DNA of 64,000 nt from Alphaproteobacteria bacterium (GTDB lineage: Bacteria > Pseudomonadota > Alphaproteobacteria > UBA7887): positions 2,338,831-2,402,830 of the forward strand of contig OZ243958.1 of the NCBI GenBank assembly GCA_965214495.1. Reading direction: 5' to 3'. Within the stretch, counting starts at the first letter, position 1; every line of letters begins with the position of its first letter. Shown here piece by piece: positions 7,873 through 42,249 of the stretch. The notes under the pieces were generated by a model that saw only the letters and a list, made by a program, of their open reading frames with translations, searched no databases and was not told the DNA's origin. Both the position numbers and the translations under genes were made by a program.

Positions 7873-8886
7873 TCACACGCCGTCCGCGCCCGCCGGGCCA
7901 TTCCGCCGGAACGGAAGAAGGAAGAAGCCGGTTCCCCAGCTCAGGTGCATGGTTGCGAGGACCGCCGGGAGGAGGAGCGCGGCGGGCTCGCGGCGGTGGA
8001 TGCCGACCGTCAGGGATCCGATCGTCAGGACGAAGAGCCAGGCAAGCGGCAGCGCCGCCGCCGCCTCCCAGGGGGCCCCGGCCGGAGCCAGGAGCGCCGA
8101 GACCGCCAGACCCGACACCAACAGCGGGGCGGCGAGATGCCGGAGCCGCAGCGACGCGGGGTGCTGCCGCAGCACCGACCTCTTCATCCGTCCGTAGTTG
8201 AAATATTGCCTGGCCAAGGCGCGCAGCGTGCCGCGGGGCTGGTATTCGACCGCGAGCTCGGGATCGAACCACACCGTCTCCCCGCGCCGCCGCAGCCGGT
8301 AGTTGATTTCGTAGTCCTCGTTGCCAGACAGGGCGACGTTGTAACTGCCCGCCGCCTCCAACGCTTCGCGTCGATAGACGCCAAGGTAGACGGTGTCGAC
8401 CGGCCCCGCGGGGCCGCCGAGCCGATAACGCGCGTCGCCTGCCCCGAGCGGCGTGGTCATCGCGACCGCCACCGCCCGCTCGAAGAACGTGGTCCCGACC
8501 GACCGTTGCCGGCCGCCCACATTCGCGGCCTCCGTTCCGTGAAGCGTCTCGACGGCGCGGCGCAGATATCCGGGCGGGAAAAACGAATGGGCGTCGCAAC
8601 GCGCGATCACACGCCCCTTTGCGATCCGCAGCGCTGCAACGATGCCGGGGATGTGCAACCTGTCGGGGTTGGGAATCAGCTTCACCGACGGGTAGAGCCG
8701 TCGAACGATCTCGGCGGTCGCGGGCGTGTCGGAGCCGTCGGCGACAACGATCTCCACCGGGCCCGCATAGTCCTGGGACAGCGCCGCATCGAGAGCCTTC
8801 GCGATGGTCGCTTCGGCGTTGCGGGCCGGTATGATAACCGACACTAGGGGGAGGCGAGTCGCGGCGGCTGCAACAGGCTGCTTCAT
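7873..8886 (-). CDS. family 2 glycosyltransferase with C-terminal membrane anchor
   Basis: LVSVIIPARNAEATIAKALDAALSQ...EIVVADGSDTPAT... (GT-A fold with a DGS-type motif) and hydrophobic helices at the C-terminus. Start set at the MKQ Met. The ORF track extends it to 8991. Confidence 0.85.
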   Translation of the reverse strand: MKQPVAAAATRLPLVSVIIPARNAEATIAKALDAALSQDYAGPVEIVVADGSDTPATAEIVRRLYPSVKLIPNPDRLHIPGIVAALRIAKGRVIARCDAHSFFPPGYLRRAVETLHGTEAANVGGRQRSVGTTFFERAVAVAMTTPLGAGDARYRLGGPAGPVDTVYLGVYRREALEAAGSYNVALSGNEDYEINYRLRRRGETVWFDPELAVEYQPRGTLRALARQYFNYGRMKRSVLRQHPASLRLRHLAAPLLVSGLAVSALLAPAGAPWEAAAALPLAWLFVLTIGSLTVGIHRREPAALLLPAVLATMHLSWGTGFFLLPFRRNGPAGADGV

Positions 8887-9595
8887 GCGATGATTTTGGA
8901 CATACCCTCTCGACTTGTCACGTCGTCTCGCTTCATACGGGGCGCGCTCCGAAAAGTCATTCGCCGGAGCACACTGCGCTGTTCGCGCCATGTTCTCGAT
9001 CGGCGGGTTCCTTCACCCCTTCCGGAGGGAGAACATTCACGGTCTCCACCGCGACCGTCAAACGAGACGGGCCGGCCGGCGTCTAGAGGCCCGGACGCCG
9101 CTTTGCGAAGACGGCGCCGACGGCGAACAGGAGTTCGCGCACTGGCGGTGGCGATACGCTCGCCGCCGCCCAATATCCTGCATACTAAGGCAAGACCGCC
9201 GATCCTTGGGGGTGGGCGTCGCGTGAAACTTATGCGGGCCGACCGCATGATCGTAACTGAGAGCGCCGGGTCGATACCAACACGGCGCCGACAACAACGG
9301 TAACCGCGAGGCCGCGCAGGATGACAGGGGCTCGGGCTCTCCCGCAGGCCGTCGGTGTTGGGCTTGAGGGCAACGCCGAGCGCTGCGACGGTCCTGCCCA
9401 AGGCGTTACGCCGCCGGCCTGCGCGACTTTTGTGATCGTCCCGGTCCCGGCCTTGCGCCCGCCGTTGCTGCGCAGCGCCGTCTTGACTATGCTGCATGGT
9501 GCGCCGGCTTCCTCGGCGATGCAGGCGAAGAACTTCGCCGTTTCCCTGAGAAAGCAGGAGCCGCTGAAGCCAGGCCCTGCATGCAGGAAATACCG

Positions 9596-9631
9596 CCCAA
9601 TGCGATTGTCGAACCCAATGCGATTGTCGAA
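9596..9631. repeat. perfect 18-bp tandem duplication (CCCAATGCGATTGTCGAA x2)
   Basis: Seen directly in the long GT2 / LRR-Wzy intergenic region. Confidence 0.7.
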
Positions 9632-9814
9632 CCCGATTCCCCTGGCGACTCCCGAGACATCGGCGTTCTCGTTGACAAAGGCAATCTCGGGTCGCAACGG
9701 CGGTATAGCCGTCAAGCGTATCGGCGGCCTCAAAGTTCATGGAACAGGTAGGGGCCGCATCAACCGTTCCCGGACTTCATCCTGCAGCACAACTGCCACG
9801 GCCGATAGAAGCAA

Positions 9815-12800
9815 GTGATCCTGTTCCGACATACGGCCTCGCTGGTGCGCCGCACCGAATCGCTTCAGGCCGCGCTGACCGCTGTCGCGTTCTGGACGCT
9901 GGCGGCGATAGCTCTGGCCGGCCTGCGGGATCTGCATCTTTGGGGGATGCCGCAGGTCGTGGGCGTCACCGCACGGGTGACCATGGCATGCGTAGCCGTT
10001 CTGGCGGGCCTGGCGGGAATCCGATGTCTGGCGGACCGGCCGAAGTCCGGCTTGCGCGCCTCGGTGCTGGGCGCAATAGGCGGAATGCCCGGCATGTTGT
10101 TGATCGGCGCGGTAGCCTCCTATCTGGCGATCGGCGTTGCCGTGATGGACGACGCGGACTGGACGCCGGACATGGCTGCGACAGTGCGGTATGCAGTCCT
10201 CTGTCTCGGTGTGCTCGTCGCCGCTGCGGTTGGCGGCCGCGCCATGCTGGAGCGGGTCGGGGCCGACCGGTTGTTGCGGGGCGTGCTTGTCGTCCTGATT
10301 GGGTGTTGCGCCCTCATTCTCGCTTCGCCGGTGCTGCGCGACCTCGGCGTCCTGGCGCCCTACAGAATCCCGTTCCGCCTGACCGGCGCTTTCACTAACC
10401 CCAACGACGCCGGCCTGGTCGCCTGCATGACGGCGGCTCTCGCCGCGGCGTTGCTGACCAATGGCGGGCCGCGCGGGCTCGGCTGGCTGGGCCTGGCCGC
10501 AGGCGTCGCCGCAGCCCTGGGGACGGCGTCCCGAACCGCTCTGGTCGTGCTCGGCGCGCTGGCGGTCCTGTTCCTGTTGCTCAACCTCCGCAGCAGACCG
10601 AGGGTTCTGGTTGCGACAGGCGTGGTATTGGCCGGGATCGCAGGATTTGTCGGCCTTGTGGGTTTCTCCGGCGGTCTTTCCGAATGGTCGAGGTTGCGGT
10701 CCGGCGCCACGCAAGAGGGAAGCCTGCTCTGCAATCCTTCGCCAACCGACAGGCGGGACTGCGCCGTCCTGCTGGCGGTGAGGGACACGCTGGCGGGGGA
10801 CATCGCCCTGAACTGGAGCCGCGCCCTGCCCGTCGAACGCTGGCAGGGCGTGACGACGGCCGGCCCGGAGGGGCGCGTTACCGAACTGCGTCTTGCGGGA
10901 CTGGGGTTGAACGGCCGCATTCCCCCGGAACTCGGCCGCCTGGACCGCCTGGAGTCGCTGTCCCTTCAGCGAAACCGGCTCACCGGGGGCATTCCGCCCG
11001 AACTGGGCGATCTGGCGAGCCTGCATCATCTGAATCTGGGCTTCAACGCCTTGACCGGAGCCGTCCCGCCGGAGCTGGCGAAGCCCAGGGACCTCTGGCG
11101 GCTACGGCTGAACCACAACCGCCTGACCGGGCCGCTCCCGGCCGCGCTCGGCGATCTCGGCCTGTCCGTCCTGCGCCTCCGGGGCAACGATTTCGACTCC
11201 ATTCCCCCCGGACTCGCCGCCGCCGACAGCGATTGGGCCGATGCGCAGCCTTGCCTGCCGCCGGCGCCGATGAACCGGGCATTGCTGGACGACTGCACAG
11301 CGCTGCTGGCGGCGAAGGAAGCGCTGGCCGGCGACGTCCCGCTCAACTGGCGCGCCGAGCTTCCCGTCGGCAAGTGGCAGGGCGTGACGGCGGGCGGTCC
11401 GGAGGGAGCCGTGACCGGGCTGGACCTCGGCAACAGGGGGCTGAACGGACGCATTCCCCCGGAACTCGGCAGGCTGAAGCGCCTCAGGACGCTGAACCTG
11501 GCCCGCAACCGGCTCACCGGCCCGATTCCGCCGGAGCTGGGACAGCTGACCGACCTGCGCGCATTGGCTCTGGACCGGAACGCCCTGACCGGCGCCGTCC
11601 CGGCGGAACTGGAACAACTCCCCGGACTCGCATCCCTGTGGTTGCGGGAGAACCGCTTCACCGGCCCCGTGCCGTCGGCGTTGTTCGACGTCCCCGAACA
11701 CGATCTCGGCCATTTCCTGTACTGCCTGCCGCCGCCGGCGCCCGGCCTGCCGCTATTCGACGACTGCGCGCTGCTGCTCGCGGTGAAAGAGACGCTGGCC
11801 GGCGACGCCCCGCTAAACTGGCGCGCGGCGCTTCCCGTAGGTTTGTGGCAAGGCGTGACCCTGGGCGGTCCGCAGGGGCGTGTGGCCGGGTTGGGCCTGC
11901 GCCGGAAGGGGCTGGACGGGCGCATTCCGCCGCAACTCGGCAAGCTGGAGGACCTCGAGTGGTTGGACCTGGCCGACAATCGGCTCACCGGCCCGGTTCC
12001 GCCGCAACTCGGCAAGCTGGAGGGCCTCAAGTGGTTGGATCTGGCCGACAATCGGCTCACCGGCCCGGTTCCGCCGGAGTGGGAGACTCTCATCCGGCTC
12101 GACGGCCTGCTGTTGGGAGGAAACAGTCTGGCCGGCCCCGTTCCGCCGCCGCTGCTCGATATCCCCGAACACGATCTCGGCCATTTGCTGTTCTGCTTTC
12201 CGCCGTTGCTGGCCGGCTCCGCCCTGCTTGAAGACTGCGAACGGCTGCTGGCGGCTAAAGGCGCACTGGCCGGCGATGCGCGGCTCAACTGGCGCCGTGC
12301 GCTGCCGATAGGCGAATGGCAGGGCGTGACTACAGGCGGCCCGCAAGGCCGGGTCGTCGCGCTGGAACTGCCACGAATGCGGCTGAACGGGCATATTCCC
12401 GCGGCGCTGGGAGGTCTCGCAGGTTTGCGAGCCCTGGAGCTTGACGCCAATGCGCTGACCGGCGCCATTCCGCCCGAGCTCGGGAAACTGGCCGATCTGG
12501 AAGCGCTCGGGCTTGCCGTCAACGCCCTGACCGGCCCGGTCCCTCCGGAACTGGGAAAGCTGCCCCACCTCAGGGAACTCCGGCTGGGCGGCAACCGCCT
12601 GACAGGCTCCCTGCCCCCGGGCCTGCGGGCGGCAGCAGTCGGGGGAGCGTCCTGCCCCGCCGCGCCTGCCGACAATCCCGCCCTGCGCGCCGACTGCGCG
12701 GTCCTGCTGGCGGCGAGGGACATCCTCGCCGGCGATGAGCGGCTCAACTGGAGCGAGCATGTCCCCATCGATTCCTGGCAGGGCGTTACGCTCGGCGGCT

Positions 12801-15800
12801 CGCCGAAGCGGGTGACGCGGCTCGAACTGTCCGGGTTGGATCTGAGCGGGCGCATCCCTTCGGAGTTGGGGCGGCTGAGCCGGCTCGTGATGTTGAACCT
12901 GAGCCGCAACCGGCTCACCGGCGGCATCCCGCCGGCATTGGGCGGACTGGACAAGCTCGAATCGCTTTTTCTCATGCGCAACTGGCTCACCGGCCCGGTG
13001 CCTCCCGAACTGGGGGCGTTGTCCGCTCTGGAGCGCCTGGTTCTCTCCTTCAACGCCTTGAGCGGCTCGATTCCGCCGGAACTGGGGAAGCTGCCGCATC
13101 TCAGGGAGTTGTGGCTGAAGCACAACCGCCTGACCGGCCCCGTGCCGCCGGAACTTGAAGGGCTGGACAATCTGGTCGTGCTGCGTCTCTCCGGCAACGA
13201 CCTGGACCGCCCCTACCCGCGGCGTCTTTTCAGGATCGCCGACCACGACCTCTTTCGCGACGGTCTGCGCCGCGGCCAGCCGCGAGGCGATGCGGGGGCG
13301 GCGGAGACGGCGGGCCGCCGGGAACCGGAGAGCGGCCCGCTTTGTCGTCCGGGTTCCGGAGGCGCCTCCGGCCTGGATGCCGACTGCGGCCTCCTGCTTG
13401 CGAACAGGGACATGCTGGCCGGCGGCGCGCCGCTCAACTGGAGCGAGCAGGTCCCCATCGACTTCTGGCGGGGCGTCACTGTCGGCGGCTCGCCGAAGCG
13501 CGTGACCGCCCTGGAATTGCCGCACGCGGGACTGGACGGGCGCCTGTTCGCGGCGCTCGGCGAATTGAACGGCCTCGTCGCCCTGGACCTGAGCGATAAC
13601 CGGCTCACCGGCCCCGCGCCGCCGGAACTGGAAAGGCTGGACAAGCTGGCCTTCCTGCGCCTCGCCGGCAACAATCTGGACCGGCCCTTCCCGCCGGCGC
13701 TCCGCAGGATTGCCGACCATGACCTGGACATGCCGGATTTCTGCCGGCCGCAGGCGATCGGTCCGGGCCTGCTCGCCGACTGCGCCCTCTTGTTGTCGGC
13801 AAGGGACACGCTCGCTGGCGATGCGCCGCTCAACTGGCGCCGCGATGCGCCGGTGGACGACTGGCAGGGGGTCGCCGTGGACCGTTCGCGCGGCCGGGTG
13901 GCGGCGCTGGACCTGACGCAGATGGGGTTGAACGGGCGCATTCCCGCGGAGCTGGGGCGGCTTGCCGGGCTCGTTTCGCTGCGCCTCAGCCGCAACCGGC
14001 TCGCCGGCGGCATCCCGCCCGAGCTCGGCAAGCTCGCCGGCCTGCGCGAGCTGGCCCTGGACGGCAACCTCCTGGCCGGCCCCGCGCCGCCGGAACTCGG
14101 CAAGCTGTCGAAGCTCATCGACCTGCGGCTGAACGGCAACCCCTTGACGGGCCCCACATCGGACCGCGGCCCGGACCTGCTCTGCCGGTCGTCGCTCGAA
14201 GGGCGCCTGCATGACGATTGCGCCCTGCTGCTGGAGATCCGGGACGAGCTGGCCGGCGATGTCGAACTGAACTGGAGCGAGGCGGTCCCGATCGACTATT
14301 GGCGGGGCGTTGCGATCGGCCTTGCCGCGGCCGCCGGCAAGGCCGGGGAAGGGACGCGCGTCATCGCCCTGGACCTGTCGCATATGGGGCTGAACGGGCG
14401 GATTCCGGCAAGGCTTGCGGCTCTGGACGCCCTTGCCGTCCTGCGTCTCGGCGATAACCGGCTTGCGGGGTCCATCCCGCCGGAACTGGGCGTCCTGGCC
14501 GGGCTGCGGACGCTGACCCTGGAGAACAACGCGCTGACAGGCAAGATCCCGCCGGAACTGGGCGCGTTGAAGGCGCTCGTTTCGCTGCGCCTCGGCGGTA
14601 ACGAACTCGCCGGCCGCACGCGGCAATTCGCCACCCTGGCCAACCTGCGCGTGCTCGCGCTGGAAAACAACCTGCTGACGGGCAATATCCATCCGCGGCT
14701 TGGCGGCCTTGAGCATCTGGAAGAACTGCTGCTGGAGAACAATCGCCTGCACGGAAAGATCCCCAGGGAACTCCACCGGTTGTCCCGCCTCGCGGTCCTC
14801 CGCCTGGGCGGCAACGCCCTTGCAGGCTGCATCGGGCGCGGCGCGGGTGCGGCGCGGGTGCGGCGCAACGACCTCGCTTCCGCCGACCTGCTCTGCGAAT
14901 CGCCGCCCTGGTCCAAGCCGGGCCTGTTCGACGATGGCGCGAGCCTGATGCGCCTGCGCGACATCCTTGCCGGCAATGCGGTGCTGGACTGGAGCTACGA
15001 GCGGCCCGTTGCGTCCTGGGAGGGCGTCACCATCGGAAACAGCGGCCGCGTCGCCGCACTGGACCTGCAGGACAGGAACCTGACCGGGCGGATCCCCGCG
15101 GAATTGGGCGAACTGCGCCATCTCCGGCGGCTGAGGCTCGACGGCAACCGTCTCACCGGCCCCATCCCCCCCGAACTGGGGAAACTGACACGGCTGGCCA
15201 TGCTGTCGCTGGAGGGCAACCGCCTGACAGGCGCCATCCCGCCGGAGGTCGCCAATCTGCCGAATCTCAGGCAATTATGGTTGGCCGACAACCGGCTCAC
15301 CGGTTCCATCCCGTTCGAATGGGCCCGTGTCCGGGGTGTCTCCCTGGCCGTCGCCGGCAACGACCTGGACAGCTGCATGGCGTGGGAACTGCGCAGCCTG
15401 CGCAGCAGCGATATCGATCACGGCACCGTCTGCACTTTCTTTATGAATCGCAGACCGTTCCTTTGGAGGCTCGGTTTTGAGAAGGCCATGGAGGCGCCCG
15501 TCTTCGGCCATGGCTTCTGGGCGCTGAAATATCTGGAAGGCGCTCCCCTCACCCATAGCGGCTTGCTGCCGGATCCTCACAATCTGTATATAAACTTGCT
15601 GGGAGAGGCCGGTATCGTCCCTCTGCTACTGTTTCTGTCCGCCATCGTCTTGCTTCTGCGCACACAATGGGTCACGCCGAAGTCGCTTGCCCGGGATGCG
15701 GCAGTGGCTTGGGTCATCGTCATCGTCCTGTATTGCATGACCTTCGCGCATCTGTTCGGCAACAAAGCATTCATGCTTATGGCCGGGTTGAGCGTCGCGA

Positions 15801-15847
15801 TAGGGGCGGTGCGGAATGCCGGAGACCGACGCCCTGAGAAAGCGTGA
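9815..15847 (+). CDS. giant O-antigen ligase/polymerase-family (Wzy_C/WaaL-like) membrane protein with a ~1550-aa periplasmic insertion of nine plant-type LRR modules
   Basis: The N-terminal ~300 aa are polytopic and carry the first Wzy_C half (...FTNPNDAGLVACMTAALAAALL...GTASRTALVVLGALAVLFLLL). The C-terminal ~160 aa carry the second half (RPFLWRLGFEKAMEAPVFGHGFWALKYLEGAPLTHSGLLPDPHNLYINLLGEAGIVPLLLFL, i.e. the R...FGxG...HNxYLxxLxExGixGlllfl signature) plus further TM helices. Between them lie nine modules of D-C-x-x-L-L-x-x-[KR]-[DE]-x-L-A-G-D-x-x-L-N-W...W-[QR]-G-V-T...GRV caps followed by 24-residue LxxLxxLxLxxNxLTGxIPPELGx repeats. TTG/ATG start uncertain. Confidence 0.8.
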   Translation: MILFRHTASLVRRTESLQAALTAVAFWTLAAIALAGLRDLHLWGMPQVVGVTARVTMACVAVLAGLAGIRCLADRPKSGLRASVLGAIGGMPGMLLIGAVASYLAIGVAVMDDADWTPDMAATVRYAVLCLGVLVAAAVGGRAMLERVGADRLLRGVLVVLIGCCALILASPVLRDLGVLAPYRIPFRLTGAFTNPNDAGLVACMTAALAAALLTNGGPRGLGWLGLAAGVAAALGTASRTALVVLGALAVLFLLLNLRSRPRVLVATGVVLAGIAGFVGLVGFSGGLSEWSRLRSGATQEGSLLCNPSPTDRRDCAVLLAVRDTLAGDIALNWSRALPVERWQGVTTAGPEGRVTELRLAGLGLNGRIPPELGRLDRLESLSLQRNRLTGGIPPELGDLASLHHLNLGFNALTGAVPPELAKPRDLWRLRLNHNRLTGPLPAALGDLGLSVLRLRGNDFDSIPPGLAAADSDWADAQPCLPPAPMNRALLDDCTALLAAKEALAGDVPLNWRAELPVGKWQGVTAGGPEGAVTGLDLGNRGLNGRIPPELGRLKRLRTLNLARNRLTGPIPPELGQLTDLRALALDRNALTGAVPAELEQLPGLASLWLRENRFTGPVPSALFDVPEHDLGHFLYCLPPPAPGLPLFDDCALLLAVKETLAGDAPLNWRAALPVGLWQGVTLGGPQGRVAGLGLRRKGLDGRIPPQLGKLEDLEWLDLADNRLTGPVPPQLGKLEGLKWLDLADNRLTGPVPPEWETLIRLDGLLLGGNSLAGPVPPPLLDIPEHDLGHLLFCFPPLLAGSALLEDCERLLAAKGALAGDARLNWRRALPIGEWQGVTTGGPQGRVVALELPRMRLNGHIPAALGGLAGLRALELDANALTGAIPPELGKLADLEALGLAVNALTGPVPPELGKLPHLRELRLGGNRLTGSLPPGLRAAAVGGASCPAAPADNPALRADCAVLLAARDILAGDERLNWSEHVPIDSWQGVTLGGSPKRVTRLELSGLDLSGRIPSELGRLSRLVMLNLSRNRLTGGIPPALGGLDKLESLFLMRNWLTGPVPPELGALSALERLVLSFNALSGSIPPELGKLPHLRELWLKHNRLTGPVPPELEGLDNLVVLRLSGNDLDRPYPRRLFRIADHDLFRDGLRRGQPRGDAGAAETAGRREPESGPLCRPGSGGASGLDADCGLLLANRDMLAGGAPLNWSEQVPIDFWRGVTVGGSPKRVTALELPHAGLDGRLFAALGELNGLVALDLSDNRLTGPAPPELERLDKLAFLRLAGNNLDRPFPPALRRIADHDLDMPDFCRPQAIGPGLLADCALLLSARDTLAGDAPLNWRRDAPVDDWQGVAVDRSRGRVAALDLTQMGLNGRIPAELGRLAGLVSLRLSRNRLAGGIPPELGKLAGLRELALDGNLLAGPAPPELGKLSKLIDLRLNGNPLTGPTSDRGPDLLCRSSLEGRLHDDCALLLEIRDELAGDVELNWSEAVPIDYWRGVAIGLAAAAGKAGEGTRVIALDLSHMGLNGRIPARLAALDALAVLRLGDNRLAGSIPPELGVLAGLRTLTLENNALTGKIPPELGALKALVSLRLGGNELAGRTRQFATLANLRVLALENNLLTGNIHPRLGGLEHLEELLLENNRLHGKIPRELHRLSRLAVLRLGGNALAGCIGRGAGAARVRRNDLASADLLCESPPWSKPGLFDDGASLMRLRDILAGNAVLDWSYERPVASWEGVTIGNSGRVAALDLQDRNLTGRIPAELGELRHLRRLRLDGNRLTGPIPPELGKLTRLAMLSLEGNRLTGAIPPEVANLPNLRQLWLADNRLTGSIPFEWARVRGVSLAVAGNDLDSCMAWELRSLRSSDIDHGTVCTFFMNRRPFLWRLGFEKAMEAPVFGHGFWALKYLEGAPLTHSGLLPDPHNLYINLLGEAGIVPLLLFLSAIVLLLRTQWVTPKSLARDAAVAWVIVIVLYCMTFAHLFGNKAFMLMAGLSVAIGAVRNAGDRRPEKA
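10757..15470 (+). repeat. intragenic array of nine tandem LRR modules (~400-700 bp each, diverged at DNA level, with near-identical 72-bp sub-repeats e.g. 11946-12089)
   Basis: Periodic protein motifs and repeated DNA strings, e.g. cggctcaccggcccggttccgccg recurring. Mirror ORFs on the opposite strand are by-products. Confidence 0.8.
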
Positions 15848-15850
15848 CCA

Positions 15851-17101
15851 TTGACCGGGAACAAGCTCCATGTTGGCTTCGCGCTGACCAACCTGAACGG
15901 CGGCGGCGCGGAGCGCGTCACACTCGACCTTGCGGCGGCACTCATCGCGCGCGGACACCGGGCAGACCTGGTCATCCCAAGCCTCGCGGGAGACTACCGG
16001 GCCGCGATTCCCCGCGGCGCGCGGCTGTATCGGGGGCGGTTTCCTCACACCGACAGGACGTTCCTGCGGGAGGTTCGCCGGGCGGGTGTCGAAGTGGAAG
16101 CGATGACCGTCAACCCATTCGGAGTCGCGCGGAGTTGGCTGGTCCTCGCCTGGAAACACCTTGGCATACGGGTGCAGCGCAAGCGTTCCCACTATGCTTC
16201 GGTCTATGTTTTGAACCGTTACCTCCGCGAAGCGTGTCCCGATGTGCTGGTATCGGGGTCGCGGGGCGCCAACGCCGCCGCGGTCTGCGCCACGGAGTTG
16301 ACGCGCCGGGCGGTTCCCGTGGTGGTCACGGTGCATAACAACATTGCCGCCGCTTATGAACCAGAATGGCTGGCCGCCGCCCGGAGTCTCTATCCGCTGG
16401 CCGACGCGGTGGTGGCGGTGTCCAAGGGCGCGGCGGAGTCTGTGCGACGGTCTGTGGGCGTGGACGCCGGGAGTATTCACACTATCTACAACCCCATCCC
16501 CGCTGACGGCATATGGCGCCTGGCGCAGGAGGAAGTCACACACCCCTGGTTTGCGGGCGGCGAGCCGCCGGTGATTCTGAGCGTCGGGCGTGAGGCGCCC
16601 CAGAAGGACTACCCCACCCTGGTGGAGGCGTTTGTGATAGCGAGACGCAAGGCGGCCGCACGGCTGGTTATCCTCGGCAAGCTCTCGGCACCCTACCGGG
16701 AAAAGCTCAAGTCCTTGGCGCGGGGCCATGGCGCGGAGGAAGACCTCGGTTTCATGGACTTCGACGAGAACCCGTTCCGCTACATGCGGCGGGCGGCGCT
16801 CCTTGCGCTCTCCTCGCGCTGGGAGGGCCTGCCGACGGTGATCCTGGAGGCGCTGGCCTGCGGCACGCCGGTGGTCAGCACCGACACGCCCTACGGCCCG
16901 CGCGAGATCCTTGGGCAGTGGGGCGAGTTGCCGCCGGTGGGCGACGCACCGGCGCTGGCGCGGGCGCTGGTCGCGACGCTGCGCGGCGAGCACCCACCGG
17001 AGGAAGCCTTGCGCGCGCGCGCCGCCGAGTTCTCCCCCGAGAAGGCCGCCGACGCCTACGAAGCACTATTCCGAAAGCTGGCGAGGGGGCGAGCACGGTG
17101 A
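15851..17101 (+). CDS. family 4 (GT-B, RfaB-like) glycosyltransferase, tandem paralogue 1
   Basis: TTG start 3 nt after the giant gene's stop. Carries the GT4 EX7E-type C-terminal domain (RWEGLPTVILEALACGTPVVSTD). ~416 aa. Confidence 0.9.
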   Translation: MTGNKLHVGFALTNLNGGGAERVTLDLAAALIARGHRADLVIPSLAGDYRAAIPRGARLYRGRFPHTDRTFLREVRRAGVEVEAMTVNPFGVARSWLVLAWKHLGIRVQRKRSHYASVYVLNRYLREACPDVLVSGSRGANAAAVCATELTRRAVPVVVTVHNNIAAAYEPEWLAAARSLYPLADAVVAVSKGAAESVRRSVGVDAGSIHTIYNPIPADGIWRLAQEEVTHPWFAGGEPPVILSVGREAPQKDYPTLVEAFVIARRKAAARLVILGKLSAPYREKLKSLARGHGAEEDLGFMDFDENPFRYMRRAALLALSSRWEGLPTVILEALACGTPVVSTDTPYGPREILGQWGELPPVGDAPALARALVATLRGEHPPEEALRARAAEFSPEKAADAYEALFRKLARGRAR

Positions 17102-18357
17102 GATCGGATAGACTCCAAGTCTGCATCACGGTAACCAGTCTGGCCGGCGGCGGAGTAGAGCGCAACATTCTCCGTCTGGCACGGTCACTCATCGAACGAG
17201 GACATCGGGTGGACTTGGTGATCCCCCGGTTCGCAGGAGACTACCTGGCGGCGATACCCGGTGAAATGCGTATCTGGCGGGCGCGGATGCCCGGCACCGA
17301 TAGGGCGTTCTTGCGAAAGGTCCGGCGGGCAGGAATCGAGGTGGAGGCGATGACCGTCAACCCCGTCGGCGCTGCGTGTGCCTGGCTGGCTCTCGCCCGG
17401 AAGCATCCCGGGATACCGGTCATACGCGGCAGCGGCATGCGCTCCATCTATCCCTACGCCCATGTTCTGGCTCGCTACCTTCGCGAGGAACGGCCCGACG
17501 TGCTGGTGTCGGCGCATATGGGCCCCAACGCCGTTGCGGTCTGCGCCGCCGAACTGACGGACCGGGCCGTTTCGACGGTGATCACTGTGCGCAATAACGT
17601 CGCCGCCGGCTATGCGCCGCATTGGTTGGCAGCGGCCCGGACGCTCTATCCGCTTGCCGACGCCGTGGTGTCGGTGTCCAGGGGTGTGGCGGAGTCTGTG
17701 CGGCGGTTCGTGGGCATGGATGCCGACCGTGTCCACACCATCTACCACCCCATCCCTGCAGACAGCATATGGCGCCTGGCGCAGGAGGAAGTCACGCACC
17801 CCTGGTTCGCGGGCGGCGAGCCGCCGGTGATTCTGAGTGTCGGGCGCGAGGCGTTGCAGAAAGATCGCCCCACGTTGGTGAAGGCGTTCGGTTTGGCGCG
17901 GCGCGAGGTGAATGCGCGGCTGGTGATCCTCGGCAAGCTGTCGGCCGCCTACCGGGAAAGGCTGCGGTCCCTGGCGCGGAGCCATGGCGCAGCCGAGGAC
18001 CTGGGCTTCGTGGACTTCGACGAGAACCCGTTCCGCTACATGCGGCGGGCGGCGCTCTTTGCGCTGTCCTCGCGCTGGGAGGGCCTGCCGACGGTGGTCA
18101 TCGAGGCGCTGGCCTGCGGCACGCCGGTGGTCAGCACCGATGCGCCCTACGGCCCGCGCGAGATCCTTGGGGGGTGGGGCGGGTTGCCGCCGGTGGGCGA
18201 CGCGCCGGCGCTGGCGCGGGCGCTGGTTGCGACGCTGCGCGGCGAGCACCCGCCGGAAGAAGCCTTGCGTGCGCGCGCCGCCGACTTTTCCGATGACAAG
18301 GCCACTGACGCCTACGAAGCGCTGTTCGAGAAGCTGGTGAGAGAGCGCGCGCGGTGA
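17098..18357 (+). CDS. family 4 glycosyltransferase, tandem paralogue 2
   Basis: GTG start overlaps the paralogue-1 stop (GTGA). The N-terminus VRSDRLQVCITVTSLAGGGVERNILRL parallels paralogues 1 and 3. Confidence 0.9.
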   Translation: MRSDRLQVCITVTSLAGGGVERNILRLARSLIERGHRVDLVIPRFAGDYLAAIPGEMRIWRARMPGTDRAFLRKVRRAGIEVEAMTVNPVGAACAWLALARKHPGIPVIRGSGMRSIYPYAHVLARYLREERPDVLVSAHMGPNAVAVCAAELTDRAVSTVITVRNNVAAGYAPHWLAAARTLYPLADAVVSVSRGVAESVRRFVGMDADRVHTIYHPIPADSIWRLAQEEVTHPWFAGGEPPVILSVGREALQKDRPTLVKAFGLARREVNARLVILGKLSAAYRERLRSLARSHGAAEDLGFVDFDENPFRYMRRAALFALSSRWEGLPTVVIEALACGTPVVSTDAPYGPREILGGWGGLPPVGDAPALARALVATLRGEHPPEEALRARAADFSDDKATDAYEALFEKLVRERAR

Positions 18358-19649
18358 GGCAGGACAAGCTTCAAGTCAGCTTCCTGCTGACCGGCATGAA
18401 CGGTGGCGGGGCGGAGCGCAGTATTCTCCGATTGGCCCGGTCGCTTATTGAGCGCGGGCACCGGGCAGATCTGGTGATCCCCAAATTCGCGGGAGACTAC
18501 CGGGCTGCGGTCCCCAGCGGAATGCGCGTCTGGCGGGCGCGGCTTCCCGGCACCGACAGGAATCTGCTGCGGGAGGTGCAGCGGGCGGGAACCGAGGTGA
18601 AGGCGATGACTGTCAACCCCATCGGTGTCGCCCGCACTTGGCTGGCTCTCGCCGGGAAAGGCTTCAACCTGCCCGTTCGAAGTCATCACCGCATCGCTGC
18701 GTATGCATACATGATCGCCACGTACGTTCGTGAGGCGCGTCCTGATGTGCTGGTGTCAGCGCTGCCGGGCGCCGACACCGCCGCTGTCTGCGCCGCGGCG
18801 TTGACGGACCGGGCCGTTCCTGTGGTGGTCACGGTGCGCATCAACATCGTCGCCGACTATACGCCGGAATGGCTGGCCGCTTGCCGAACCCTCTATCCGC
18901 GGGCCGATGCGGTGGTGACGATATCCCGAGGCGTGGGCGAGTCCGTGCGGCAATCGATGGGGGTGGATGCCGGGCGCGTTCGCACCATCTACAACGGCGT
19001 TCCTGTCGACAGCATACGACAGCTGGCGCAGGATGAAGTCACGCACCCGTGGTTCGCAGACGGCGAGCCGCCGGTGATCCTGAGCGTCGGGCGCGAGGCG
19101 TTGCAGAAAGATCACCCCACGTTGGTGAAGGCGTTCGGTTTGGCGCGGCGCGAGGTGAACGCGCGGCTGGTGATCCTCGGCAAGCTGTCGGCCGCCTACC
19201 GGGAAAGGCTCAAGTCCCTGGCGCGGAGCCATGGCGCGGAGGAGGACCTGGGCTTCGTGGACTTCGACGAGAACCCGTTCCGCTACATGCGGCGTGCGGC
19301 GCTCTTTGCGCTCTCCTCGCGCTGGGAGGGCCTGTCGATGGTGGTCATCGAGGCGCTGGCCTGCGGCACGCCGGTGGTCAGCACCGATGCGCCCTACGGC
19401 CCGCGCGAGATCCTGGGCGGGTGGGGCGACCTGCCGCCGGTGGGCGACGCGCCGGCGCTGGCGCGGGCGCTCGTCGCGACGCTGCGCGGCGAGCACCCGC
19501 CGGAGGAAGCCTTGCGCACGCGCGCCGCCGACTTTTCCGATGACAAGGCCGCCAACGCCTATGTCGCGCTGTTCCGGGAGCTGGTGCAGGAGCGCGCGGT
19601 GAAGCCGGATACACTTCCTGTCATTCCGGGAGAACCGGCGCAGCCATGA
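18354..19649 (+). CDS. family 4 glycosyltransferase, tandem paralogue 3
   Basis: GTG start overlaps the paralogue-2 stop. The C-terminal half is almost identical at DNA level to paralogue 2. Confidence 0.9.
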   Translation: MRQDKLQVSFLLTGMNGGGAERSILRLARSLIERGHRADLVIPKFAGDYRAAVPSGMRVWRARLPGTDRNLLREVQRAGTEVKAMTVNPIGVARTWLALAGKGFNLPVRSHHRIAAYAYMIATYVREARPDVLVSALPGADTAAVCAAALTDRAVPVVVTVRINIVADYTPEWLAACRTLYPRADAVVTISRGVGESVRQSMGVDAGRVRTIYNGVPVDSIRQLAQDEVTHPWFADGEPPVILSVGREALQKDHPTLVKAFGLARREVNARLVILGKLSAAYRERLKSLARSHGAEEDLGFVDFDENPFRYMRRAALFALSSRWEGLSMVVIEALACGTPVVSTDAPYGPREILGGWGDLPPVGDAPALARALVATLRGEHPPEEALRTRAADFSDDKAANAYVALFRELVQERAVKPDTLPVIPGEPAQP

Positions 19650-21019
19650 CGCCGCAAGAGCCGGACAGGCCGGCCGGCCCGCGCACGACCGGCGGACAGG
19701 ATGCGGCCATCGTGTTCGCAACCCAGGCCGGCAGGGTCGTGTTCGGCGTGGCGATCCAGAGCCTCCTGGCCTACACGCTGTTGCCGGAAGGGCGGGGCAG
19801 CTTCGCCGTATGCGTCGTGTTCGCTCACGTTCTCGCCGTGCTCTTCACACCGGGGGCGCGGGAAGGCGCGCAATATTTCGTCATGACAGGGCAGGCGTCG
19901 GTTTCGGAAGGGACCGCCTCCGCCCTGGCGGTCTGCCTCGCCGGCGGGGCTCTGGCGGTCGCCCTGGCGGCCCCGTTCGTCCACAGCGAAACAGCGTTCT
20001 TCCAGCAGGCGGAGCCGAGCGCCTTCTATCTGGCGTTGGCGCTGGTTCCCGTCATGGCGTTCTCGGGTGCGCTGGAGCGCCAACTCGCCGCGCTCCGGCG
20101 TTTCGGGCATCTCGCGGCGTTCACCCTGCTCCATGTCGCCGTGAACGTTCTTGCGCTCCTGGTTCTCGTGCCGGTTTGGGAACTCGGGGTGGACGGCGCG
20201 ATCCTGGCGGCCGCCGCCGCGCACGGTTTTTCGGTGGCGTTACCAATATGGTATCTGCGGCGCCGCCATGGACTGGTTCCGACGAACCCGTTCCGCGCCG
20301 TCTCGTCGCGAATCGTCGGCTACGGGCTGCGATTCCACGCCGCAGGCATAGGCATCGCGCTGGAAATGAGTGCGGGCATCCTCATTCTCGGGCTTTTCGC
20401 CAGCCCGGCGGAAATCGGCCTGTTCGCAACCGCGAGCATCCTCATGTTTCGACTGAAAATGATCTCGGACTCGGTCGGCAGCGCGCTGCTGCCCCGTATC
20501 GCCGGCAGCGGCCGCCCGGAACTGACGGCGCTCTGCCTGCGGCTCGTTCTGTGCGCCACCGCGGCCGCGTGTCTCGCCGTGCTGGCGGTAAGCGCGCCGC
20601 TGGTCCGGATCCTCTTCTCCGAAGCCTTCCTGCCGGCGGTCCCGCTGCTGTGGATTATCGCCCTCGGAGTGCTCGCCTGTGCCGGCGCCGGCATACTCGG
20701 AACCTACTTCAAGGCTATCGACCGCCCGGGCATCTGCTCTTGGGCTGTCTCCCTGGGAGTGGCGGCGAATCTCCTTGCGATTCCCCTGCTCTACCCGGCG
20801 GTCGGCGTCGCGGCCGCGGCTTGGGGGCTGACCCTGGGCATGGCCTGCCGGCTCGTCCTTCTCGCGGCGGCGTTCGCAAGACAGGCCCGAATGACCCGGT
20901 TCTCAATCTGGCTGCCGCAGGCCGGCGATGCGGTCTCCGCCTGGCAAGCGGTCCGGGCTGCGCTCGGCGCCCGAACGCTTCGCGAGGCGGTATTCGACAA
21001 TCGCCGGCCGGGGTGTTGA
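19646..21019 (+). CDS. Wzx-like polysaccharide flippase (MOP/PST family polysaccharide biosynthesis protein)
   Basis: ATG overlaps the GT4-3 stop (ATGA). 457 aa with ~12 predicted TM helices. N-terminal ...LLAYTLLPEGRGSFAV... matches the PST-family LLAR-L-PE-G signature. Confidence 0.85.
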   Translation: MTPQEPDRPAGPRTTGGQDAAIVFATQAGRVVFGVAIQSLLAYTLLPEGRGSFAVCVVFAHVLAVLFTPGAREGAQYFVMTGQASVSEGTASALAVCLAGGALAVALAAPFVHSETAFFQQAEPSAFYLALALVPVMAFSGALERQLAALRRFGHLAAFTLLHVAVNVLALLVLVPVWELGVDGAILAAAAAHGFSVALPIWYLRRRHGLVPTNPFRAVSSRIVGYGLRFHAAGIGIALEMSAGILILGLFASPAEIGLFATASILMFRLKMISDSVGSALLPRIAGSGRPELTALCLRLVLCATAAACLAVLAVSAPLVRILFSEAFLPAVPLLWIIALGVLACAGAGILGTYFKAIDRPGICSWAVSLGVAANLLAIPLLYPAVGVAAAAWGLTLGMACRLVLLAAAFARQARMTRFSIWLPQAGDAVSAWQAVRAALGARTLREAVFDNRRPGC

Positions 21020-21287
21020 GGCATGAACATCCTCCGGCCGATCCCCATGAGGATGCTGCCGCGCGGGCCGCGGGGCGACAGGAAGTTGCGCCGACGGTTG
21101 CCAGCGGCAGATGCCGCACGAGTCCAGCGCGGAATTGCGGAGTCCGTCAGGGTGTGCGGGTTCGCCATGGCCTCGTCGCTCAAATTAACCTTGCCCGTTC
21201 CGCGCCGCGCCCTTTGACGGCGGGACAGACAATCCGGGCGCGGCAGCCGGAATCGATGCTTCTACCATAGAACGGACAGTAAGAACC

Positions 21288-22412
21288 ATGACGGGCCCCT
21301 CCAATACTCGCGGAAAAATCAAAATTGCCTATGTGATATCGACACTTTGGAGATGCGGCCCATCCATTCAGCTAAAAAACATCTTGCGGCATATGGATTA
21401 CGACAGATTCGAGGTGTCCATAATAACTCTTTCTCCCGAAAGGAAAGATGACTCCCTCATAGGTGAGATTGAATGTCTTCCTCCAAGGATATACCCGCTT
21501 AATATGAGTAGAATTCTCGGATTATTCCGGATGAAAAAACGCTTCCAAGACATAATTGAGTTAATCCATCCGGATCTGATACATAGCTCCGGTTGGCGAA
21601 GCGACACTCTCGTATCGAAATTGAATCGGTCCGCCGTCTGGATTGCAACGTGCAGAAACATTCCCGATATCGACTATCCCTTGGAGTTCGGGAAATATCC
21701 AGGAGCATATATGGCAAGAAGCCATCTAAGGGCTCTGGGAAGATGCGGCAATGTTGTATGCTGCTCGAATTCCATGAAGGCTGAATATGAACAACGCTAT
21801 GGTATGAAAGACGCTTTGGTAGTCCCGAATGGAGTAGAGCTGCCCCAGGATATCGCCAGTGCGTGTGCAGAAAGAAATGGGAACTTCAGAGGCGTGACGG
21901 TAGGCCGGTTGGTTCCTCGGAAGAATGTTCGGTATTTATGTGAGGTTTTCAAGAGACTGGATAACAACAATACAAGGTTGACCGTTATCGGGGATGGACC
22001 GGAATACGGCGATCTTACACGTTATGAAGACAATAGAATATCGCTCGTCGGGCATCGGGGCGAAGACGATGTGTACAGATATCTGCACGGGTCCGACTTC
22101 TTTATGAGCGCGTCATTAGGAGAAGGATTGCCGAATGCCGTATTGGAAGCATTGTCGATGGGGCTTCCCTGTGTGCTTTCCGACATCGGCCCGCATCTCG
22201 AATTGAGGGATGCCATGCCGCCCGGAAGCGTAGAGATTTTCTCCCTGTCCGATCCTCCCGATGCGGTTGCATATAGATTGAAGGACTATTTGGCGACTAT
22301 TGCGAGCCTGCCAAGGGAACAGATCAGGCAGCGAACCGTGGAGAAATACTCGGCGAAAAGGATGTCACAGCGCTATCAGGCATTGTATTCAAGCATCCGA
22401 GCGGCCGCCTGA
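21288..22412 (+). CDS. family 4 glycosyltransferase, compositionally foreign (low GC)
   Basis: 374-aa GT4 (…GEGLPNAVLEALSMGLPCVLSD…). Strikingly AT-richer than its surroundings, with a different codon style. Preceded by a 268-bp gap. Confidence 0.85.
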   Translation: MTGPSNTRGKIKIAYVISTLWRCGPSIQLKNILRHMDYDRFEVSIITLSPERKDDSLIGEIECLPPRIYPLNMSRILGLFRMKKRFQDIIELIHPDLIHSSGWRSDTLVSKLNRSAVWIATCRNIPDIDYPLEFGKYPGAYMARSHLRALGRCGNVVCCSNSMKAEYEQRYGMKDALVVPNGVELPQDIASACAERNGNFRGVTVGRLVPRKNVRYLCEVFKRLDNNNTRLTVIGDGPEYGDLTRYEDNRISLVGHRGEDDVYRYLHGSDFFMSASLGEGLPNAVLEALSMGLPCVLSDIGPHLELRDAMPPGSVEIFSLSDPPDAVAYRLKDYLATIASLPREQIRQRTVEKYSAKRMSQRYQALYSSIRAAA

Positions 22413-26079: not shown

Positions 26080-26156
<77 letters not shown>

Positions 26157-26211: not shown

Positions 26212-26330
26212 GGCTTGGCAGCGACCTGCTCTCCCGCGCCTTAAGACGCAGTACCATCGGCGCTGCGGGCTTTCACTGCCGAGTTCGGGATGGGATCGGG
26301 TGTTTCACCCGCGCCATGACCGCCAAGCCA
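26212..26330 (-). rRNA. 5S ribosomal RNA
   Basis: Minus strand reads ...GGCGGTCATGGCGCGGGTGAAACACCCGATCCCATCCCGAACTCGGCAGTGAAAGCCCGCAGCGCCGATGGTACTGCGTCTTAAGGCGCGGGAGAGCAGGTCGCTGCCAAGC, a canonical 5S. Confidence 0.9.
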
Positions 26331-26424
26331 ACGCATCGTCCGGATGCGTCCTTGCTTTCCCGATTGCGCGCGTCTTCGCCGGCGGCGCCCGCCCTGTTCG
26401 AGGGCGCGGATCTGGAGCCGTTCG

Positions 26425-26943
<519 letters not shown>

Positions 26944-26944
26944 C

Positions 26945-27213
26945 GGATAGCGGAACTCCGGCCCGCCGGGCACCAGCGGGTCGCCCCACGGAATCAGCAC
27001 GCTGTAGCGATAGTCCGGCGAGATCGCCGGGTTCGGCCCGCCGCCGCGGGCGAGGGGGACAGGTTCGAAGCCGACCAGCGGCGAAGCGGCGCGCGCACCC
27101 CTGCTGCGCCCGGTTCCGAGAAACCCTACCGCCGCTGCCGCACCGCCGGCCAGAACGGTCCGCCGCGTGAGACGGGCTGCGAGAACTTTCACGAACGGTT
27201 CGCCGCCGCTCAT
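26945..27213 (-). pseudogene. N-terminal fragment of a PhoX/DUF839-type Tat-secreted phosphatase, truncated by the rRNA fragment
   Basis: [33 protein letters not shown] (twin-arginine signal) then [10 protein letters not shown]...[20 protein letters not shown], the PhoX N-terminal signature. The next codons are translated rRNA. Confidence 0.5.
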
Positions 27214-41787: not shown

Positions 41788-42249
41788 GTGACGATCATGG
41801 TTCTCGATACGCTCAAGGCCGCCAAGGTGCTCACCGCGGCCGGCGCGGCTCAACCTCTGGCCGAAGCCATCGTATCGACGGTGAACGACGCCATCTCCGA
41901 CAACGTCGCCACCAAGGGCGATATCGAAAAACTCCAGGGCAGTATCGAGAATCTCGAAGGCGATATCGAAGACCTCCGAGGCGAGGTCAAAGATATCAGG
42001 AGCGATATCAAAGATCTTCGCGATAACGGTGCCACCAAAGCCGATATCGATAGCCTGCGCGAAACCAGCGCCACCAAGGCCGATATCGACAACCTTCGCG
42101 AAACCAGCGCCACCAAAGCCGATATCTCCAACCTCGAAGCGCGCATGTATCGCGCGCTGTGGATGCAGGCGGGCGGCATCGTCGCGGCGATCACCGCGCT
42201 GGCAGGCATCGCCGTGGCATTCGCCAATCTGATCGCCGGAACGGTTTGA
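41788..42249 (+). CDS. DUF1640-family coiled-coil protein with C-terminal transmembrane anchor
   Basis: MTIMVLDTLKAAKVLTAAGAAQPLAEAIVS..., ATKADI(D/S)xLRETS repeated three times (39-bp DNA repeats), hydrophobic tail GGIVAAITALAGIAVAFANLIAG. Confidence 0.7.
   Translation: MTIMVLDTLKAAKVLTAAGAAQPLAEAIVSTVNDAISDNVATKGDIEKLQGSIENLEGDIEDLRGEVKDIRSDIKDLRDNGATKADIDSLRETSATKADIDNLRETSATKADISNLEARMYRALWMQAGGIVAAITALAGIAVAFANLIAGTV

Follow-up and report, generated by a model that had tools for sequence, protein, structure and literature searches.

In this study, we examined a pair of adjacent leucine-rich repeat (LRR) units in a giant gene of an alphaproteobacterium (UBA7887 lineage). The gene lies in a window of 64,000 nucleotides (nt), which is the whole stretch of DNA that was analysed (GenBank assembly GCA_965214495.1, contig OZ243958.1, positions 2,338,831 to 2,402,830 of the forward strand). 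It encodes a membrane protein of the Wzy_C family with nine LRR modules in one of its loops, and the pair is located in module 3. We found that the two units are identical by descent and that each of the four alleles compared carries exactly two of them. An earlier note on this DNA had flagged the pair as a slipped-strand hotspot of repeat-number variation. We consider it probable that the pair instead arose by a one-unit tandem duplication in module 3 and was then stable at two copies.

Units A and B are identical by descent

Tandem Repeats Finder detected a direct repeat with a period of 72 nt, 2.1 copies, 96% matches and zero indels at the flagged site (Table 1). When the sequence was compared with itself at an offset of 72 nt, 77 of 80 bases were identical (11925-12004 versus 11997-12076). 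The longest exact repeats in the pair were 36 nt (11969/12041) and then 27 nt (11925/11997). The two in-frame units, designated A and B, share 67 of 72 bases, which confirmed that near-identical 72-nt tandem LRR units are present, as the earlier note had described. Both peptides that it quoted were also found in frame of the open reading frame (ORF) at 9815-15847. Its coordinates for the pair (11946-12089) were shifted by about 10 nt and did not follow the reading frame, the in-frame units being 11936-12007 and 12008-12079. The exact 42-nt run that it took for a repeat occurs a single time in the window, at 11981, and is the junction of two shorter repeats. The long identical strings that it ascribed to the other modules were overstated. 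The remaining exact matches within the giant gene are 25, 22, and 21 nt long, and its modules are 60-80% identical to one another at the DNA level.

Thirty LRR units of 72 nt were parsed from the giant gene, and their 435 pairwise DNA identities were calculated (mean 56%, standard deviation 9%). Units A and B ranked first among the 435 pairs with 67/72 identical bases (93%), and the runner-up had 59/72. Of the 20 positions at which the two units agree in amino acid, 19 also had the same codon, compared to a background of 48% (binomial P=1e-5). Since the pair is at the top of all pairs and its codon identity lies far above the background, these results demonstrate that units A and B are identical by descent, through recent duplication or conversion, and not by protein-level constraint.

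Copy number at the flagged site in related alleles

The window gene was compared with three related genes of the same 90% cluster (P0001, P0122, and P0123; n=4 alleles). The three relatives were found on three separate contigs of one European Nucleotide Archive (ENA) assembly (ERZ25070786), from one metagenome. They are 92-96% identical to the window gene at the DNA level in a mosaic manner, with some stretches at 100% and the 3' end at 72-89%. Exactly two units were present at the flagged site in all four alleles. The full set of length differences among the alleles consisted of a 72-nt insertion in L035 (at 13121, in module 5), one 6-nt indel, and one 3-nt indel. The insertion in L035 forms a new tandem LRR pair that is 95% identical.

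Two of the sites that vary within the units changed in concert. At unit sites 31 and 61, the window and L034 have G in both copies, and L001 and L035 have A in both (Asp to Asn and Val to Ile). This pattern is expected from gene conversion between units; the sample is small, and the effect is far stronger at the module level in orthologues. Because six other unit sites follow orthology, the duplication must be older than the divergence of the alleles.

The dN/dS ratio (nonsynonymous to synonymous substitution) among the alleles was 0.4-0.6 in the membrane and LRR parts alike. Constraint on the giant gene is relaxed, with no signal of diversifying selection specific to the LRRs among these alleles. 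Separately, we observed that the 3' end of the gene (15337-15847), which encodes the C-terminal Wzy_C half, is 97% identical to L001 and just 73-77% identical to L034 (dS of about 0.06 and 0.5, respectively). The mosaicism of the 3' end points to allelic recombination that swaps this putative catalytic half.

Probable gain of one LRR in module 3

Module 3 of orthologues is 157, 130-133, or 108 amino acids (aa) long. When module 3 of the window was aligned with the 130-133-aa module 3 of orthologues, a single 24-aa gap was found, exactly at unit B. Because this alignment needs one gap at unit B, it suggests that the lineage of the window may have gained one true LRR in module 3.

Alternatively, no copy was gained: gene conversion would have made two pre-existing LRRs alike that had already diverged within a four-LRR module, and the module length of 157 aa would have remained constant. 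In the window, modules 2 and 3 are both 157 aa long, a length that many orthologues also have in these two modules, and the two concerted sites between units A and B also agree with this explanation. Module-level homogenisation is strong across the family, and in several orthologues modules 2-4 or their caps are near-identical inside one protein. In addition, module 3 from which one unit was deleted scored slightly higher against the 157-aa module 2 of orthologues than against their 133-aa module 3. However, the flanks of the pair (..LEWL DL.DN.LTGP.PP ... L.GL LL.GN.L.GPVPP) match the three-LRR module 3 of P0021, P0022, P0032, and P0038, and the alignment to these four proteins leaves a clean 24-aa gap at unit B. 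Conversion without gain is thus unlikely, though it is the strongest of the alternatives.

The duplication that we favour would have copied one unit of 72 nt, which is one turn of the solenoid, in tandem within module 3 of the modular LRR array. The most likely cause would be misaligned recombination or replication slippage between adjacent LRR units with a common consensus stretch. The event would be older than the split of the four known alleles. The site would have held two copies ever since, and occasional gene conversion between them may have slowed their divergence. It would be one small instance of a process that is seen across the family, in which LRR units and whole modules of about 470 nt are born, lost, and homogenised, each time with the frame and the LRR register preserved. 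The large Wzy_C loop has been enlarged by nine small capped plant-type LRR domains. It is plausible, at about even odds, that these serve as a binding scaffold.

Several points weigh against this account, among them the module 2 score described above. The evidence for gene conversion is thin, as it comes from two concerted sites in n=4 alleles. The comparison covered four assembled alleles, and the flagged site may have copy-number variants of low frequency. On the protein side, confidence in the model of the transmembrane part was low, and the PDB has no sequence match to this part. Its predicted topology and putative catalytic competence are drawn from Pfam membership and from what is generally known of WaaL and Wzy.

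Gain and loss of repeats across the family

Indels were surveyed in 10 clusters at >=90% identity, which comprised 50 full-length proteins. Exact 24-aa indels were found in three of the 10 clusters, all in the region of modules 5-6. No whole-module indel was seen in these clusters, and the remaining length differences were due to start-codon choices or linker indels. The earlier note had proposed that module number be compared among orthologues. Among the 120 best homologues, module counts ranged from 4 to 16, and module lengths changed in steps of 24 aa. Two-module paralogs and insert-free relatives at related loci extend the range of the family to 0-16 modules. An adjacent LRR pair with at least 20 of 24 identical residues was present in 12 of 120 family proteins, at varying positions; adjacent units in the family typically have 14-18 of 24 residues in common.

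Larger changes were observed among paralogs. P0036 (L001 5652-9683, 1343 aa) precedes the closest orthologue of the giant gene, and its first 300 aa are 100% identical to this neighbour. It carries an in-frame deletion of 669 aa by which LRR2 of module 1 is joined to LRR3 of module 5 with the LRR register kept. P0036 is a very recent tandem duplicate of the giant gene. The window has no P0036-type paralog beside the giant gene. At L004 (10001-20889), three tandem paralogs were found. Two of them are 1178 aa and 831 aa long, the latter with two modules. The third is cut short by the end of the locus; over the first 1523 aa it is 100% identical to P0124, a protein of 2038 aa. At L026, L027, L029, L032, and L033, there are relatives of 505-649 aa that have no insert.

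These results bear out the earlier expectation that LRR units and multi-module blocks are gained and lost in frame, as seen in module 5 of L035, in P0036, and in the three clusters. Length variants also coexist, as had been anticipated, since they were found together in one metagenome assembly.

The location of the expected hotspot is a different matter. If slipped-strand mispairing or recombination often altered the unit number at the flagged site, populations would be heterogeneous in length there. Such a process could act on the 80-nt direct repeats, which match at 96% and include 36 nt of perfect homology. Unit indels do occur among close relatives of the giant gene, and the length variants of one assembly could be read in the same way. 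However, four alleles of 92-96% identity with distinct single-nucleotide polymorphisms have exactly two copies, the 24-aa (72-nt) indels fall in modules 5-6 and not in module 3, and the pair has just 2.1 copies, which have already diverged at 3-5 sites. A perfect homology of 36 nt in 2.1 copies is a weak substrate beside classical contingency repeats. Because all four alleles have two copies, the indels lie elsewhere, and the substrate is weak, an active slipped-strand hotspot was not demonstrated, and we regard it as improbable. The features of a hypervariable repeat were likewise absent from the site, which showed no copy-number difference among the four alleles, 2.1 copies, and exact repeats of at most 36 nt. 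JGI metagenome contigs were also scanned for variants with one, two, or three copies, and a 34-nt degenerate pattern derived from the flagged unit gave zero matches there.

Repetitive genes are error-prone in general, and the repeat could have been wrongly expanded or collapsed during assembly. We rejected this artefact as highly improbable, since the same two units were found in four independently assembled sequences, each with its own substitutions, the exact repeats are just 36 nt long, and the frame is intact across 2010 codons. Constraint at the protein level, by which two LRRs would be forced to the same sequence without recent common descent, draws on the strong LRR consensus and the usual 14-18 common residues of adjacent units, but it was refuted by the codon test and its probability is negligible.

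The warning of the earlier note about short-read assembly does not hold for the window copy, in which exact repeats of at most 36 nt are far below read length. It does hold for relatives with repeats of 415-565 nt. Arrays with a period of 471 nt, 2.4 copies, 97% identity, and exact repeats of this length were found in L003 (11432-12580), L005, and L023 (11601-12727). These arrays are a far stronger recombination and assembly hazard than anything in the window, and long reads are needed to assemble those relatives in which the 471-nt arrays are perfect. The corresponding array of modules 2-4 in the window has 74% matches, compared to 97% in L003 and L023.

The flagged pair is therefore best seen as an ordinary footprint of LRR repeat evolution with a stable copy number, and it matters little by itself. 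What the real alleles from one community show is that the length of the giant gene shifts cleanly, by one LRR or by several modules at a time.

Architecture of the giant gene

The product of the giant gene is identical to the database protein P0121. Pfam matched it to LRR_1, LRR_8, LRR_4, LRR_14, and Wzy_C. About 300 hydrophobic residues are N-terminal and about 170 are C-terminal, with the array in between. In the native protein, the match to Wzy_C (PF04932) was split into two separate stretches and scored 46.7 bits (gathering cut-off 31.7). When the array was excised in silico, a single continuous match was obtained, which covered positions 2-149 of 149 at 71 bits. Because excision restores one continuous match, the array is an insertion in the Wzy_C loop, and its length is about 1,550 aa. 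These results establish the combination of a Wzy_C core with nine LRR modules. The coordinates of the features are listed in Table 1.

Table 1. Positions in the window of the giant gene, its Wzy_C parts, its LRR modules and the repeats discussed in the text.
Feature	Position	Strand	Description	Basis
Giant gene	9815..15847	+	2010 aa, GTG start; Wzy_C-family membrane protein with nine-module LRR array in loop	ORF list, translation, Pfam
N-terminal transmembrane half	9815..10732	+	aa 1-306; first part of Wzy_C core	Pfam after joining to C-terminal half
LRR array	10733..15400	+	nine LRR modules	Module parsing, DNA repeat families, PDB matches, P0086 model
Starts of modules 1-9	10733, 11267, 11738, 12209, 12668, 13358, 13754, 14192, 14909			
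Older module-level tandem repeat	11302..12345	+	modules 2 to 4; period 471 nt, 2.2 copies, 74%	Tandem Repeats Finder
Module 3	11738..12208	+	157 aa; contains units A and B	Module parsing; alignment to orthologues
DNA-level tandem repeat	11925..12076	+	holds the 36-nt and 27-nt exact repeats	Tandem Repeats Finder
LRR unit A	11936..12007	+	LGKLEDLEWLDLADNRLTGPVPPQ; module 3	In frame
LRR unit B	12008..12079	+	LGKLEGLKWLDLADNRLTGPVPPE; 67/72 bases same as unit A	In frame
Site of extra LRR unit in L035	13121..13122	+	72-nt unit, module 5	Allele alignment
Conserved C-terminal Wzy_C segment	15446..15637	+	aa 1878-1941 (...FGHG...HNLY..LLGEAGIVP)	Pfam profile positions 82-149/149

The conserved C-terminal segment is followed by three predicted helices that reach the stop codon. 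The R..W..P.FGHG..HN.Y..LGEAG motif consists of residues that are invariant or near-invariant in the family alignment. Judging from the conserved FGHG...HNLY...GEAG segment, the enzyme core appears to be intact. In WaaL, Wzy, and PglL, the corresponding loop is the large periplasmic loop bearing the catalytic residues. The LRR array is likely to be periplasmic too, and an oxidising compartment would fit because a Cys is conserved at each module boundary.

Each module consists of an N-cap with one Cys (DC..LL..KD.LAGD..LNW..W.GV), 3-7 plant-type LRRs of 24 aa, and a C-cap that ends in Cys. The DNA repeat families of the array have spacings of 72 nt and 396-717 nt. The 24-residue period was confirmed by the 72-nt period in Tandem Repeats Finder and in the repeat families, with the units in 24-aa register. 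In the AlphaFold model of P0086 (1157 aa, four modules), about 9-10 helices precede the insert and three follow it. The membrane core was modelled at a predicted local distance difference test score (pLDDT) of 30-70. The LRR modules were confident capped solenoids (pLDDT 85-96), and the inter-module geometry was poor, with a predicted template modelling score (pTM) of 0.41. A sequence search of the PDB with the excised transmembrane core gave zero matches even at E<=10.

Likeness to known systems

When one module was searched against the PDB using phmmer, it matched the plant ectodomains of GSO1, FLS2, BRI1, and SERK/BAK1. The module has in common with these plant LRR receptor kinases the 24-residue repeat and the consensus LxxLxxLxLxxNxLtGxIPxxLGx. 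The alignment to GSO1 (6s6q) spans the cap and the LRRs, and the cap has the same layout (LL..K..L....L..W......W.GV). A module of 4-7 LRRs with caps is also about equal in size to the SERK ectodomain. Unlike the plant receptors, the protein is bacterial, has nine modules in a row inside a membrane enzyme, and is without a kinase domain. Its cap lacks the plant Cys pair (C..W.GV.C), and Pfam LRRNT_2 gave no match in the giant-gene product even at E<=10.

The same LRR class is found in bacteria in the Xanthomonas type III effectors XopAC/AvrAC, XopAE, and XopL. NCBIfam gave partial matches to these three at 219, 196, and 86 bits, and the family cut-offs are 450-600. In contrast to these effectors, the giant-gene product is membrane-embedded, has no Fic or E3 ligase domain, and is not a secreted effector.

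The product resembles the Wzy_C family (WaaL, Wzy, and the PglL/TfpM O-oligosaccharyltransferases) in its Pfam match above the cut-off and in its glycosyltransferase neighbours. Its predicted arrangement of about nine helices before the loop and three after it may also be that of WaaL, judging from the low-confidence model and general knowledge. It differs from the family in its loop insert of about 1,550 aa and in being without a PDB sequence match. The nearest curated models, PEP_O_lig_1 and TfpM, scored just 22-24 bits.

In-frame change of repeat number by recombination is known from the alpha C protein of group B Streptococcus, from plant R genes, and from Listeria internalins. Long in-frame units, gain and loss of units among strains, and concerted evolution are shared with such repeat-variable surface proteins. 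The flagged site differs from them in having two near-identical copies and no copy change, and the array is probably periplasmic and not exposed at the surface.

Gene neighbourhood and distribution

A family 2 glycosyltransferase (GT2) gene and a GFO/IDH/MocA oxidoreductase gene lie upstream of the giant gene on the opposite strand. Downstream are three family 4 glycosyltransferase (GT4) genes, an unassigned 457-aa ORF, another GT4 gene, and a gene for an AsnB-like amidotransferase. With these neighbours, the giant gene is part of a polysaccharide gene cluster. No second Wzy_C gene was seen in the 64-kb window, and for this reason the giant-gene product is most likely the Wzy/WaaL-type enzyme of its cluster. 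The GT4 genes downstream are tandem paralogs with about 78-84% DNA identity, of which the window has three (15851-19649) and L001 has five (16043-22344). Genes for DDE transposases adjoin the cassette in two related contigs (L034 4625-5266 and L001 25491-26006).

The start of the giant gene (9815) is separated by a 74-nt gap from the start of a divergent ORF (9740, minus strand). This gap contains a G tract, which is GGGG in the window (9751-9754) versus G12 and G14 upstream in L035 and the L001 paralog. Homopolymer length polymorphism is a classical slipped-strand substrate. The tract lies in what may be a promoter or 5' region and is a stronger candidate for a hotspot than the flagged pair, and a HiFi homopolymer error is possible. 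The divergent ORF (8883-9740, minus strand) is Pfam-negative and has a perfect 18-nt tandem duplication of CCCAATGCGATTGTCGAA in two copies at 9596-9634. Among relatives, CCCAATGCGATTGTCGAA is present as one copy in two with an exact match and as a single slightly diverged copy in a third. The stretch homologous to this region is annotated in relatives as a UDP-glucose dehydrogenase fragment.

The distribution of the gene was scanned with one genome per species, with alignment of the N-terminal domain as the query. We found 32 loci with 48-75% identity to this domain; exact peptides of the giant-gene product retrieved no relative from genome contigs. The metagenome-assembled genomes (MAGs) of these loci are labelled Alpha- and Gammaproteobacteria, Bryobacterales, Vicinamibacterales, Nitrospirales, Gemmatimonadota, Longimicrobiales, Candidatus Entotheonella, Binatia, and Tepidiformaceae. 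It is common for several paralogs of the family to stand in tandem at one locus. In L002-L033, the gene and its flanking glycosyltransferase genes are 80-91% identical at the nucleotide level between differently labelled phyla, and no similarity extends beyond the cassette. Examples of such cross-label pairs are Nitrospirales versus Gammaproteobacteria and Vicinamibacterales versus Pseudomonadales. This identity across phyla reflects either recent transfer of the cassette or wrong taxon labels.

When 1.84 billion representative proteins were searched exhaustively, the N-terminal 300 aa matched 128 clusters, most of which are proteins of about 450 aa without the insert. Because there are just 128 clusters and these are mostly insert-free, the LRR-bearing clade is narrow. 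Zero matches to the N-terminal part were found in a plasmid database. A literature search pairing O-antigen ligase or Wzy_C with LRR found nothing relevant, and the Wzy_C-LRR gene family is apparently undescribed. The taxon labels of the relatives' MAGs belong to taxa that we take to be typical of sponge microbiomes, and the habitat of the relatives is possibly sponge. Their accession block also contains submissions of the Sanger Tree of Life programme. No record or paper tying their MAG accessions to a host was found.

The giant gene and its family may matter more than the flagged pair. With up to 16 plant-type LRR domains on an enzyme like a polysaccharide ligase or polymerase, several tandem paralogs per genome, and high DNA identity between MAGs labelled as different phyla, the family is a candidate for interaction with a host or phage at the level of the envelope. 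We tentatively suggest that a narrow Wzy_C clade may carry a chain of plant-type LRRs, that its cassette may move between the phyla of one host-associated community (possibly in sponge), and that fast diversification, through duplication, deletion, and conversion of LRR units and modules and through mosaic alleles, may serve a possible envelope device directed at host or phage; this wider picture is more doubtful than the duplication itself. The Wzy_C-LRR family also lends itself well to the study of how domain arrays evolve.

Other features of the window

On the minus strand at 26422-27128, just the 3' part of a 23S rRNA gene was found, which corresponds to Rfam model positions 2045-2912. It is followed on the same strand by a 5S rRNA gene (26213-26327) and then tRNA-Met(CAT) (26080-26156). 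A 5S rRNA gene followed by tRNA-fMet is the layout of an alphaproteobacterial rRNA operon. The 23S fragment begins about 100 nt after the end of the asd gene and looks like an orphan or truncated tail of such an operon.

Tandem repeats were also observed in an ORF of 153 aa at 41788-42249 (plus strand), where repeats of 21 nt and 39 nt are located at 41915-41984 and 42031-42134. Its product has coiled-coil repeats of the ATKADIDxLRETS type, a C-terminal hydrophobic helix, and a weak CCDC90-like match.

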